Positions 1-11,251 of a stretch of 19,253 bases of DNA are shown here, one piece after another (position 1 is the stretch's first letter; each line of letters opens with the position of its first letter). Below the pieces are notes generated by a model, which was not told the DNA's origin, ran no database searches, and saw only the letters and a list, made by a program, of their open reading frames with translations. The DNA is from Escherichia coli (GTDB lineage: Bacteria; Pseudomonadota; Gammaproteobacteria; Enterobacterales; Enterobacteriaceae): assembly GCF_003334335.1 (NCBI RefSeq), contig NZ_QOWQ01000055.1. The stretch is one strand, 5' to 3'. The position numbers were made by a program, and so were the translations under genes.

Positions 1-1168
1 CTTTATTATCGAGTTCGGTGACCGCCTGGACGGCCACTTCTGAGAAAAGGTATTTACACAGAATCCTGAACAGGCTCTCCATGGCTGCTTTTCGCATCTT
101 ACGTCTTAACCCTGCCTTGAATACCTTCTCATTCGTCAAAATATTAATAGCAATGTGCCGTATCCCTGAAAATAATTCTGCTGCGTTTCCTCTTCTTATT
201 TTGTAGTCGTCTTCATTCATTACCACGTCCAGACGCCTGTGCAGCTTATTCTCCACGTGCCAGTGGTTTCGGATTGCTGTGGCGAACTTCTCTGCGGTTA
301 AATCAGCAGAACTGATATAATATCTGACCGTCATTTCTGGCTCTTTCTTTTGTTCTGCTATTATTGACCGAAAGGAGACTGCCACGCATAATTTCTTCAG
401 CCCTTTCCATTCAAATGTGAAATCAATAAGTTCATCAGGGACATCGCAAACAATGTGAAGACGGATTTCTTCTCTGCCGTGACTCTTTTCACTAATTGCG
501 TAACTGTCATGCTCTGGATTATTTAATTCTTTCAGCGGAAATTTTTCCTCGAAGGCTTTATTTAGCCGCCCCTGGTTTCCTTTTACCGCGAATAAATAAT
601 CACCTCCCTGTTTTTGTATCTTCTCTGCAATATCTTTCTGGCAACCCATCGCATCAGTTGTGATGATTTTTCCTTTAATATCCAGCATGTTAAGAAGTTC
701 AGGGATAGCTGTAATCTCATTGGATTTCTCATCCGTCCTGATCTGTCCGATGACCAGACTGTGCATTGTTGAGAACGCACTAATGACATGAATCGCTCCC
801 TTGCGGCGACTCTTGTCATAAGAATGCCGGAGTGTTTTTCCATCAATTGCGATGACGTCTTTATCATCTGAAGTATGGCAATCTCGCATCCAGTTAATAA
901 AGCACTCGTGAAATTTTGAAGGACTGATACAGGATACAACTCTGGCGATGGTATCGTGAACAGGAATACCATTTTCAAAATCACCATATTGTTTTAAAAA
1001 ATCGAGATGTGTTTCCCCAAAATCCTCTATATCTTCCCAGCCTTCTGCACCAGAAATAACGGCACAAATAGTCAACAGTAGAATATCTGACAATTTATGT
1101 TCCACTTTCCAGGCTTGTCTGTAATCGGGGATAATAGAAATATGTTCCATCAATTTTTTAAGTTCCAT
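1..1168 (-). CDS. ISAs1-family (H-repeat-associated) transposase, 3' end runs off the window edge
   Basis: Minus-strand ATG at 1166-1168 preceded by AAGGAG RBS; my own translation ([50 protein letters not shown]...[12 protein letters not shown]...) is open for 389 codons to position 2 with no stop. Recognised from memory as the H-rpt/ISAs1 transposase family (YhhI/YdcC-like). Absent from the ORF track because no stop lies in the window. Confidence 0.85.
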
Positions 1169-1266
1169 TTTGTTCTCCTTAATTATGTAAGGAGTATTTG
1201 ATCATGTATAAGCAATAAAAAACAGCTTCAGGTAATGAGGAATATCTCAATTTTTAAACATAAAAT

Positions 1267-1312
1267 GCGAATTATTTAGTACAAAAAATCAGCGTTACGT
1301 GATCTTTCCCTG
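1267..1312. repeat. Imperfect direct repeat, copy 1 (gcgaattatttagtacaaaaaatcagcgttacgtgatctttccctg)
   Basis: Aligned by eye to 1519-1566; roughly 85% identical over ~46 bp. Confidence 0.7.
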
Positions 1313-1518
1313 CCCCTGCGCTCACTACCATGGCTCTTTACCACAGCAGCCGGGGTTGTTTGGGACCGACTTCCGACAGCAGATCCCGGTGGGCCTGCCA
1401 CCATCTCTTCACAAGCTTATGCTTATTACATGCAAAACGTCCCGTTTTGCATCTTTGTGCCTACGGCACACCGGTGATCTTTCCCTGATGAGGGATATAT
1501 TAACTATTGAACATTAGC

Positions 1519-1566
1519 GCGAATTATTTAGTGCAAAAAATCAGCATCACGTGATGCTTTTCCTGC
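1519..1566. repeat. Imperfect direct repeat, copy 2, containing a 16-bp perfect palindrome agcatcacgtgatgct (1543-1558)
   Basis: Direct repeat of 1267-1312; the palindrome was verified by reverse-complementing. Confidence 0.7.
1532..1560 (-). terminator. Probable rho-independent terminator of the rhs-immunity transcript
   Basis: On the minus strand the 16-bp palindrome (1543-1558) is followed by a U-run (plus-strand A-run 1535-1540), about 40 nt downstream of the immunity gene stop at 1599. Confidence 0.45.
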
Positions 1567-1598
1567 TATTAATAACCTCCTCTATTTAACTATATTTT

Positions 1599-1991
1599 TC
1601 ATTGATGCAATTCGTAGATTTGAAGAAGTTCAACTGCCACATTTTTATTTTTACTATCGCAATTTTTATACCATACCCATGCTTCCGTATTTTTTACTTT
1701 TTTTAAATCATCCATAATAAAATCCCCACCAAAAACAGTAAAATACAATGTTTCCTCATTAAAAATAAAACTCACTGCCCCCCCCTCTTTTATTTTAATT
1801 TCCGCTTCATTTGTGTTCAAATCAACTTTTTTAATTACTCCATGTAAGTTGGGTTTTGATAGTTTTTCTACGCCACCATCAGGAGCGGGTAATATACATC
1901 GTTTAAGAACTTTAGCATTTGCACATCCAATAACCCAAATTAGAATGCACACTCCCATGTTAATCGCATTAACGTGTCTTAAAACGTTCAT
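1599..1991 (-). CDS. Rhs-associated immunity protein, exported (signal peptide with possible lipobox VIGC)
   Basis: 130-aa ORF whose start overlaps the rhs stop by 23 bp (1969-1991), the typical toxin-immunity arrangement. N-terminus [26 protein letters not shown] is signal-peptide-like. AT-rich like the adjacent toxin domain. Confidence 0.6.
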
Positions 1992-9925: not shown

Positions 9926-10027
9926 TTAAATATTCTAAAACAAACAGTTTTTAACTCCGGATTCCATGTCCTTTCTTGCACTGTCTTTGTCAAGAAAAAT
10001 TTCTTATGCAAAGAATTTTGTATTATT

Positions 10028-10062
10028 GCCGCCAGAAATTCCTGGCGGCAGATATAATTTAT
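10028..10062 (+). terminator. Hairpin between convergent ykfM and yafT (probable bidirectional terminator)
   Basis: Stem gccgccag (10028-10035) / ctggcggc (10042-10049), loop aaattc, followed by a moderately T-rich tract. Confidence 0.4.
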
Positions 10063-10847
10063 TATTGATAGCGGTTAACCAAATCTTTTACCATCGCTTT
10101 ATAGGTCTTTTGCTTAAGTTGCATGATTTGCTGCTCTGTCATATCAGTCGTACTGGCTTCATTCTTGTCGGGCAATGGTGGAAGCACTTTATATTCATAA
10201 TTCACCGGCGACCAGGTAGCCCACTCACCTGTTGCCACATCCACCAGCGTGAAACGTACCAGGTAGCGCAGGGAGATAGCGTCAGTGAGTTTGTCATTTT
10301 TATAGTCGGACCATACTGTTGATTTCAGCGCAGAGTCATATTTTCCTGTCTGCAACATATCCTGGTAAACAATAATCGCTTTCTGATGTCCTTTTGCAGC
10401 CACAAAACGCAGTGCCTGCATCCAGTTCATATTCTCAGCACTGGCAACATCCTCGTTCTCATTTTTATCTTTGTTTTTGTTACAAGTCAGAGGCTTTTGC
10501 CTGTCCGGGATACCAGAGAATGTGGAAACAGTATAATATTTTCGCATCTCCTCCTGCATAATGGTTTCCGGTGCGCGGTTGCCGGATTGAACAAGTATTA
10601 CAGGAGAATTAAGGGGAACGCGGAACTCATCTCCATCAAGCGCAGCTTGAATATCCTCTTCGGATACGGCCAGAGTGGTTTCATTACCGAATAAATCTTT
10701 GTCTGTCAGTTGCTGGGGAGTGTTTTTATTAATATTACTTTGTGTGACTTGAGCTTTTTTCTTCTTTTCATCAATAGAAGATTCAGAGGCACATCCTGCA
10801 AGCAGCGAGAATAACACACATATGCAACAAAGCTTTTTTGAATTCAT
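10062..10847 (-). CDS. yafT: Lipoprotein YafT (261 aa)
   Basis: N-terminus [24 protein letters not shown] is a lipoprotein signal with lipobox LAGC; GAGGGAG RBS; size and position next to aspV match K-12 yafT (from memory). Confidence 0.8.
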
Positions 10848-11109
10848 AATTGGACACTCCCTCGCCTGTCATAATGATTAGAATATTTAGCATTGATAAC
10901 GGACTCTAATTATATACCTCACTTAAATAATAACAAACAAAATCAATTTGAAATATACATTCATTTAATCAATATAAATTTATTCTCTAGAAATATATTT
11001 AAGCTGAATGGTTCGATATCATTATTGAATTTTAATGAATGAGACAACAAGCGAGAATCACGCACCTACGCCAGAGTAAAATCATTGAACAGAGAAATGG
11101 TGGAATTCA

Positions 11110-11146
11110 AATACAAAAAAACCGCAAAATTAAAAATCTTGCGGCT
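11110..11146 (-). terminator. Rho-independent terminator downstream of aspV
   Basis: Minus-strand hairpin ccgcaagatttttaattttgcgg followed by a U-run (plus-strand A-run 11114-11121), ~30 nt after the tRNA 3' end. Confidence 0.6.
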
Positions 11147-11174
11147 CTCTGAACTCATTTTCATGAGTGAATAG

Positions 11175-11251
11175 TGGCGGAACGGACGGGACTCGAACCC
11201 GCGACCCCCTGCGTGACAGGCAGGTATTCTAACCGACTGAACTACCGCTCC
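11175..11251 (-). tRNA. aspV: tRNA-Asp (GUC), 77 nt with encoded CCA
   Basis: Reverse complement reads GGAGCGGTAGTTCAGTCGGTTAGAATACCTGCCTGTCACGCAGGGGGTCGCGGGTTCGAGTCCCGTCCGTTCCGCCA, the E. coli tRNA-Asp sequence as I recall it, with anticodon GUC in the loop. Confidence 0.95.

Follow-up and report, generated by a model that had tools for sequence, protein, structure and literature searches.

The 19,253-nucleotide stretch of Escherichia coli DNA analysed here, called the window (assembly GCF_003334335.1, contig NZ_QOWQ01000055.1), contains the tRNA gene aspV together with a chromosomal region known to be variable in this species. The DNA left of aspV is very probably a degraded form of the aspV–yafV island that encodes T6SS-1 (subtype i1), a type VI secretion system (T6SS), in K-12-like E. 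coli: the secretion system was disabled by deletion, both ends of the island keep their effector–immunity modules, and the K-12 locus would result from one more deletion. Breakpoints, gene identities and population counts could be established for this locus, which was disabled by microhomology-mediated deletion, insertion of an insertion sequence (IS) and slippage. An earlier reading of the sequence (the original prediction) had proposed that an island more complete than that of K-12 is preserved next to aspV at an intermediate stage of decay. We confirm this finding and support its interpretation, and the biology behind it is already known.

Linkage of E. coli T6SS loci to aspV has been described (PMC5363993, PMC2941450, PMC2808357), and truncated T6SS/1 clusters were reported from commensal and mastitis isolates and judged to be non-functional from their small size (Leimbach et al. 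2017, PMC5422975); the T6SS/1 island was the most variable region examined in that study. Those clusters belong to the same island as the one presented here, where in addition the breakpoints and the link to the K-12 pseudogenes are mapped. Knowledge of the T6SS itself remains unchanged by our analysis. Its main use lies in annotation, namely of yafU as the remnant of a Tme effector and of ykfM as a candidate Tmi immunity gene, and in an exact, sequence-level origin for three little-understood features of K-12, yafU, yafF and ykfM, as leftovers of a T6SS island after a single 8,767-bp deletion.

A remnant of the T6SS-1 island

Alignment with strains carrying a complete aspV-linked T6SS, which had been proposed as a check, revealed a full T6SS-1 at the same site in SE11 and in O157 Sakai. 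The order in the complete loci is aspV, yafT, a cargo cassette (ykfM, yafU), hcp, tagA, tssM, tssA, vasI, tssH, tssL, tssK, tssJ, tagH, tssG, tssF, tssE, tssC and tssB, followed in divergent orientation by hcp, vgrG, rhs, an immunity gene, ISAs1 and yafV. The island in the window lies between aspV/yafT and yafV, and both of its ends are syntenic with the complete loci (alignment to Sakai and SE11, annotation of EC416). The window aligns to the two ends of the complete island: position 6063 corresponds to position 8099 of the SE11 locus, inside tssM, and position 6045 to SE11 29550, about 150 bp into rhs. Approximately 21.4 kb are absent if compared to SE11 and O157 Sakai, from codon ~41–46 of rhs through to the last 547 bp of tssM, and with them tssA, vasI, tssH, tssL, tssK, tssJ, tagH, tssG, tssF, tssE, tssC, tssB, the second hcp and vgrG. 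The SE11 block that holds the remaining core genes gives no alignment to the window.

What is left of tssM is a 3′ stub (6063–6609, plus strand; last ~182 codons, 547 bp) that matches positions 986–1167 of the 1168-position NCBIfam TssM profile and is joined head-to-head to the truncated rhs at 6062/6063, the junction of the ~21.4-kb deletion. Among the core genes only hcp is whole and tssM persists as the 182-codon stub; the annotation of the identical EC416 locus contains no further core gene of the T6SS. Since the core gene set is deleted the system cannot fire, and the locus is a remnant of the aspV-linked T6SS-1 (i1) island and not a working member. With the T6SS-1 islands of this subtype (O-island 7 of enterohaemorrhagic E. 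coli, LF82 PAI I, Ec042-0210-0226 of enteroaggregative E. coli 042 and the SE11 locus) it shares the site and the gene order at both ends, and it differs from them by the lack of ~21.4 kb, on which vgrG, 12 core genes and a second copy of hcp are located, and by the reduction of tssM and rhs to stubs. The 16 bp at 6047–6062, unaligned to Sakai, were considered as filler of the junction and rejected, as in TST3 and C1 these bases belong to the native rhs. Also E1624, ECGC74 and TST3, which match the window at the tssM breakpoint with 100% identity, were considered as closest intact relatives; all of them proved to be differently degraded, and SE11 and Sakai served as references.

Occurrence of the junctions and recurrent loss

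The occurrence of these arrangements was surveyed in a collection of 5,426 complete genomes, to which all counts below refer. The exact rhs–tssM junction is present at 100% identity in six of them (EC416, PEC1009, LR-64-2, LR-29-1, GDSC2BY4G and EEC_W5), independent RefSeq entries with pig, bird, human, vegetable or chicken as the source. Exactly the same six genomes contain, again at 100% identity, the junction at the left end of the window where IS1414 interrupts an ISAs1-family element. The arrangement recurs at 99.9% identity in independent complete genomes, and IS1414 marks a small window-type clade. A misassembly, i.e. a chimeric rhs–tssM join from collapsed repeats, had been raised as the explanation that would overturn the original prediction. 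Rhs and ISAs1 sequences are indeed multi-copy (a genome has 11 matching places in the median) and assemblies are often interrupted at repeats of this kind, yet an artefact is practically excluded by six independent complete genomes that agree in both junctions, and by 54 more with a related junction.

This related junction is found in ML35 and 53 other genomes. They have the same rhs breakpoint and keep 1,305 bp of tssM; another 754 bp of these are gone from the window, with TAC at the join. Between window-type and ML35-type loci there are only 2–3 single-nucleotide polymorphisms in 17 kb. At the level of nucleotides the ML35-type deletion (locus 11995–11998) and the window-type deletion (6060–6066) share the rhs breakpoint (TAC/TACC). 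Either a second deletion started exactly at the first junction or the site in rhs was used twice. In the latter case both junctions would have formed independently from an intact locus, one nucleotide of rhs acting as a hot spot for deletion in each of them. In native rhs (TST3) the site reads CTCCTCTACC|GCCG and the second native tssM site reads GGATACC|TTCTACC, which offers a 4-bp TACC for direct formation versus the 3-bp TAC for a deletion starting from ML35; moreover, several other independent rhs–tssM junctions exist. These other junctions use different positions in rhs (3,162, 3,066 and 4,041 bp kept) and the 2–3 polymorphisms per 17 kb fit a single lineage with two successive deletions. 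We thus regard the hot spot as the less likely of the two, while a considerable chance must be conceded to it, and prefer two successive deletions in one lineage.

The other forms of decay are diverse. In E1624 3,162 bp of rhs are joined to 2,922 bp of tssM, in ECGC74 3,066 bp of rhs to 1,863 bp of tssM, and in ZYB62 4,041 bp of rhs are fused to tssC, while TST3 contains truncations flanked by IS1 and ISKpn26. As these forms are independent, the loss of T6SS-1 is recurrent: the island was lost repeatedly and independently in E. coli, and the cassette of hcp, effector and immunity gene was often kept. The cassette hcp–yafU–ykfM occurs in 2,549 genomes, versus 2,184 with the T6SS-1 sheath genes, and the alternative cassette known from Sakai in 364. 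Thus at least 365 genomes have the hcp–yafU–ykfM cassette without sheath genes, and probably at least 729 do, both numbers being lower bounds derived from the totals.

Origin of the K-12 locus

Between aspV and yafV, K-12 MG1655 contains only yafT, ykfM and the pseudogenes yafU (339 bp) and yafF (189 bp), just as stated in the original prediction (yafT, ykfM, a truncated yafU and an H-rpt pseudogene). Comparison by BLAST shows that positions 313–9079 of the window (8,767 bp) are missing from K-12, whose sequence jumps from window position 9080 to 312 with the junction GCAGAAC|CATAG. The two sides in the window read ...CAGCAGAAC|TGATA and ...CTGGAGAAC|CATAG, the K-12 junction reads CAGCAGAACCATAG, and the breakpoints share the 5-bp microhomology AGAAC. 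The K-12 locus is therefore the window minus 313–9079, one deletion across AGAAC, and whole-locus alignment, by which the claim of a more complete island was to be judged, leaves K-12 as the less complete of the two.

From yafU, K-12 retains window positions 9080–9436; its yafU open reading frame (ORF) corresponds to 9098–9436, i.e. to residues 193–304 of a protein of 304 amino acids, and lies co-directionally downstream of yafV. The K-12 pseudogene yafF corresponds to 75–312, the final 238 bp of the ISAs1 element with the 3′ end of its transposase gene. Besides this segment, K-12 and the window share yafT, ykfM, the 3′ end of yafU and 8 kb of core sequence without differences (no mismatch in the 10,174 bp of 9080–19253, colinear and inverted), and K-12 differs by the absence of both 313–9079 and the IS1414 insertion. 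The K-12 junction was detected in 371 genomes, with ER1709 and JB41, both of them laboratory strains, among the matches listed.

The opposite direction, with the K-12 state as ancestral and the window as an island that grows by gain of T6SS fragments, has nothing specific in its favour beyond the fact that acquisition is a way in which islands at tRNA genes become larger. Each boundary lies inside an ORF whose lost part exists in register in the complete loci (TssM from profile position 986 to 1167, the RHS core from 46, YafU residues 193–304, and yafF), and the microhomologies at the junctions amount to 3–5 bp, which is typical of deletions. Growth of the island is thus extremely improbable. 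More weight has to be given to a single deletion of ~30 kb by which K-12 lost the whole island directly from an intact T6SS-1 locus. Both K-12 breakpoints (the 3′ end of ISAs1 and codon ~187 of yafU) lie outside the 21.4-kb gap, so K-12 itself cannot discriminate. Flanks identical to those of K-12 (no difference in 10,174 bp on one side and in 235 bp on the other) were found only in genomes that carry the degraded form, while the examined intact loci of SE11 and Sakai diverge by 1.4–1.9% in their flanks, which makes the one-step loss rather unlikely. Derivation of the K-12 state from an already degraded locus remains the favoured course.

Proposed history

We suggest the following succession. 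A microhomology-mediated deletion of ~21.4 kb joined rhs at codon ~41–46, in head-to-head orientation, to the final 547 bp of tssM, perhaps in two steps of 20.6 kb and a further 754 bp. To this the lineage of the window would later have added the entry of IS1414 into ISAs1 and, within rhs, the loss of 7 bp by slippage. The survivors are the two ends of the island, with hcp, YafU and YkfM on one side and an Rhs tip of the YkuD fold with a lipoprotein-like immunity gene on the other. From such a locus the K-12 state could be reached by one more illegitimate deletion (313–9079, across AGAAC) that left yafF, the 3′ part of yafU (yafU′) and ykfM. The present-day use of the surviving genes would most plausibly be immunity against T6SS-1-armed E. 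coli. As the window has IS1414 and the 7-bp deletion, both lacking in K-12, it represents a sister state to K-12 and not its ancestor; the wording of an intermediate stage of decay is thus adequate for the gene content and inadequate as a statement on ancestry.

Several points weigh against parts of this scenario. The order of events is inferred and not proven; the window junction could also have formed directly from an intact locus via the 4-bp TACC; and the K-12 deletion removed the very region that would show whether the ancestor of K-12 was already degraded. A promoter scan of 5800–11300 gave 12 promoter-like sites compared to 9.7 ± 3.4 expected, i.e. chance level, and YkfM has no match to DUF1240 or to any other family of Pfam even at E ≤ 10. 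In the same scan the sole noteworthy hairpins were one between ykfM and yafT and one after the tRNA gene.

Predicted effector–immunity modules at the island ends

The rhs pseudogene (1969–6062, minus strand) matches the NCBIfam model RHS_core in two frames (3984–6050 and 1969–3951) that cover profile positions 46–721 and 747–1261 with 1,352 and 1,044 bits, and Rhs_assc_core with 81 bits. It lacks ~41–46 N-terminal codons, the promoter and the vgrG partner. If compared to EC416 and ML35 the frame is shifted by a 7-bp deletion at 4022/4023, which corresponds to the loss of one copy from the tandem GTTCACCGTTCACC. None of the 5,426 genomes contains it at 100% identity, so that it is private to the window; it goes back to slippage in recent time or else to an error in the sequencing of the source. 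Typical features of Rhs polymorphic toxins are found, namely the RHS core with YD repeats, the DPLGL motif, a variable tip and an overlapping downstream ORF; those required for delivery are gone with the truncated N-terminus, the frameshift and the deleted vgrG. The rhs gene is dead, and only the part coding for the toxin tip and the neighbouring immunity ORF remain intact. The original prediction had listed an Rhs toxin–immunity pair among the additions to this locus, which applies to the tip and the immunity ORF and has to be restricted for the truncated and frameshifted rhs itself.

The C-terminal domain (153 amino acids after DPLGL; 1969–2430) weakly matches Pfam YkuD (PF03734) with E = 1.4e-4. 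Its AlphaFold2 model (predicted local distance difference test score, pLDDT, 73.7) was compared with the PDB by Foldseek, and the top 13 matches were all YkuD-fold enzymes (query-normalised template-modelling score, TMq, 0.41–0.56). In an alignment of homologues (n = 16) H96 is invariant and C118 nearly invariant within an HGGG...GCTR motif. Homologues in other bacteria follow DPxGL motifs and therefore represent a family of polymorphic-toxin tips. The tip is thus a predicted toxin whose modelled YkuD fold (L,D-transpeptidase or carboxypeptidase) goes together with conserved His and Cys. YkuD-fold T6SS effectors are known, e.g. Tlde1a from Salmonella (PMC9638812). The Rhs tip resembles them in its predicted fold, keeps the His/Cys pair and has a candidate for an exported immunity protein downstream. 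In contrast with Tlde1a, which is free Hcp cargo, the domain forms here the C-terminal tip of an Rhs protein, its gene is inactivated and sequence similarity is not detectable: in the fold search Tlde1a ranks 15th (E = 0.27), and a PDB sequence search with the tip found nothing relevant and no Tlde1a.

The predicted immunity gene (1599–1991, minus strand; 130 amino acids) overlaps the stop of rhs by 23 bp, and its role is suggested by this position. The product has an N-terminal hydrophobic signal with a lipobox-like VIGC and is annotated in EC416, ML35 and TST3 as WP_001101839.1, an intact hypothetical protein; searches in Pfam and NCBIfam returned only a weak match to DUF4367 (E = 4.6e-4). 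Because the signal is lipoprotein-like a periplasmic target fits, and the ORF is predicted to encode a periplasmic Rhs immunity protein.

At the other end of the island hcp (tssD; 7996–8478, plus strand) is intact and matches TIGR03344 with 203 bits over profile positions 1–166 of 167. Its DNA is identical to that of EC416, and the complete cluster of SE11 has the same Hcp accession, WP_001284199.1, as EC416. It is followed by an intact yafU (8522–9436, plus strand; 304 amino acids), 100% identical to WP_000908066.1. For this very protein the Supplementary Data of Fridman et al. 2020 (PMC7046647) give a Tme domain (residues 122–277, E = 2.6e-36), Hcp WP_001284199.1 upstream and WP_001236645.1 (YkfM) downstream. 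In an alignment of 8 homologues D209-x-x-K212, hydrophobic transmembrane helices and D260 are invariant, and the fragment left in K-12 (residues 193–304) retains the invariant D205, M208, D209, K212, P237 and D260. YafU is accordingly assigned to the published Tme family of membrane-disrupting T6SS effectors; its intactness and its Tme identity had escaped the original prediction.

Downstream, ykfM (9446–9925, plus strand; 159 amino acids) encodes a multi-pass membrane protein that is identical in K-12. YkfM is 51% identical to a neighbour of the Salmonella effector with a precomputed match to PF06836/DUF1240 and is similar to the Rahnella neighbour with E = 6e-5. In Salmonella and Rahnella the YafU homologues adjoin hcp, and downstream of them DUF1240 proteins are encoded, which have been proposed as the Tmi family of immunity proteins. 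Pfam and NCBIfam searches assigned no family to YafU, YkfM or YafT. We predict from this context that ykfM is the Tmi-type immunity gene of YafU. The pair shares with the Tme/Tmi family (PMC7046647) the listing of YafU therein, the motif of DxxK, transmembrane helix and D, the Hcp upstream and YkfM downstream; it differs since YkfM lacks the DUF1240 match in Pfam and the locus is devoid of a secretion machine.

A contig from Salmonella enterica (GCA_027232745.1; 1–12000) contains an E. coli-like T6SS-1 end (tssM, tagA, hcp) beside yafT and dnaQ, together with two tandem Tme/DUF1240 pairs of which the second effector is split in two ORFs.

In transposon-directed insertion-site sequencing data of K-12, ykfM is found among the genes with few insertions, beside antitoxins and the Rhs immunity gene ydcD; a ykfM::Tn5 mutant is viable, and mutation of ykfM leads to hyper-killing when nalidixic acid is applied. 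It is a tentative idea, more doubtful than not in our opinion, that E. coli repeatedly deletes the T6SS-1 machine and keeps the end genes because ykfM and the Rhs immunity gene guard against armed neighbours, with ykfM of K-12 as a working orphan Tmi immunity gene and yafU′ as a residual toxin fragment. If true, residual YafU′ toxin together with an orphan ykfM could explain both the few transposon insertions in ykfM and the hyper-killing by nalidixic acid. The possible role of ykfM in K-12 as an orphan immunity gene is the best lead from this analysis, and it is testable in a laboratory strain.

Remaining features of the window

Between the tssM stub and hcp lies an intact ORF (6620–7972, plus strand) with matches to Pfam ImpA_N (E = 3e-19) and VasL (E = 4.8e-23) and a central hydrophobic stretch. 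Its score reaches the cut-off of neither NCBIfam TssA equivalog model (84 bits versus 230), and it is assigned as a TagA-like T6SS accessory protein. The intact hcp, the ImpA_N gene, the tssM fragment and the transposase that had been named as extra to K-12 could all be located by profile searches and ORFs.

In the 3′ end of tssM and in tagA (6063–7929) a single mismatch to O157 Sakai is found in 1,867 bp (99.95% identity), compared to a difference of 1.4% in the flanking core (11175–17251); identity to Sakai collapses within the end of tagA and hcp (7930–8235), and homology begins again at 10193. From this pattern it seems that the T6SS-1 core was recently exchanged between phylogroups and that hcp and the cargo cassette were swapped as a unit.

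The lipoprotein gene yafT (10062–10847, minus strand) is convergent with ykfM across a terminator-like hairpin (10026–10051). It is a quasi-core gene, and 4,098 of the 5,426 genomes contain it with a coverage of 80% or more. The gene for tRNA-Asp(GTC), aspV (11175–11251, minus strand; ARAGORN, and Rfam tRNA with 67.7 bits), has its 3′ end directed toward the island. It had been considered as the island boundary, which agrees with its location, while the variable part begins only near the 3′ end of yafT; accordingly, the statement that everything left of aspV is accessory holds for the segment beyond yafT and not for yafT itself.

The core genes dnaQ, rnhA, yafS, gloB, mltD, yafE, yafD, yafC, dkgB and aspU follow at 11252–19253 in inverted K-12 order (annotation of EC416 and MG1655). 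As predicted, this part is conserved core, with 100% identity to MG1655. aspU is a second tRNA-Asp gene (ARAGORN, Rfam), located downstream of rrnH, that occupies 19178–19253 and is truncated by the edge of the window. Its 79-bp region is identical to that of aspV, so that the core block sits between two direct tRNA-Asp copies.

A GC profile, also suggested with the original prediction, displays mosaic blocks along the window: 60–67% in the rhs core, 32–45% in the rhs tip and immunity gene, 53–57% in tssM′ and tagA, 31–42% from hcp to yafT and 42–54% in the core. The composition of the island (31–67%) differs from that of the flanking core as in a classical tRNA-integrated island. An integrase was found neither among the ORFs of the window nor in the annotation of EC416, and no 14-mer of aspV and its flank recurs as an att-type repeat in the island of the window, ML35, K-12, Sakai or EC416; the combination of integrase and distal repeat of the tRNA 3′ end, typical of such islands, is thus lacking.

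The left end of the window is formed by the right end of IS1414 (1–74, plus strand; IS256 family), inserted in the 3′ end of ISAs1 and cut by the window edge. According to the annotation of EC416 its transposase gene ends at position 43. With respect to ML35 it represents an insertion of ~1.3 kb with an overlap of 9–11 bp, read as target duplication. The ISAs1-family element (75–1312, minus strand; an H-repeat, ISEc1-like) is 95% identical to ISEc1 of Sakai. Its transposase ORF is open from 1168 leftwards and belongs to the family by its match to transpos_ISAs1 (NF033564; 407 bits, profile positions 1–314 of 314). It extends over 389 codons without stop, the native C-terminus being swapped for IS1414 sequence after about residue 364.

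Between ISAs1 and the Rhs immunity gene a segment (1282–1402, minus strand) matches the Rfam family group-II-D1D4-2 (RF01999) with 81.8 bits versus a gathering threshold of 36 over the whole model (1–118 of 118). It is accompanied by ~80-bp direct repeats of the ISAs1 end (1235–1313 and 1488–1566, 81% identical) and flanked by the 14-bp repeat GTGATCTTTCCCTG. Of a complete group II intron only this 121-nt match is seen: at E ≤ 1 no other intron model was found in 1000–2100, and the available space is too small for an ORF encoding a reverse transcriptase. A literature search on group II introns in H-repeats returned nothing useful. The unannotated intron-like segment of ~190 bp is present in 2,282 genomes, usually as a single copy, and in O157:H7 strain 7409 it lies at another locus, where its neighbours are again an ISAs1 and an RHS element. 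The segment resembles, at most, a remnant of a group II intron, one that travels with Rhs/H-repeat junctions.

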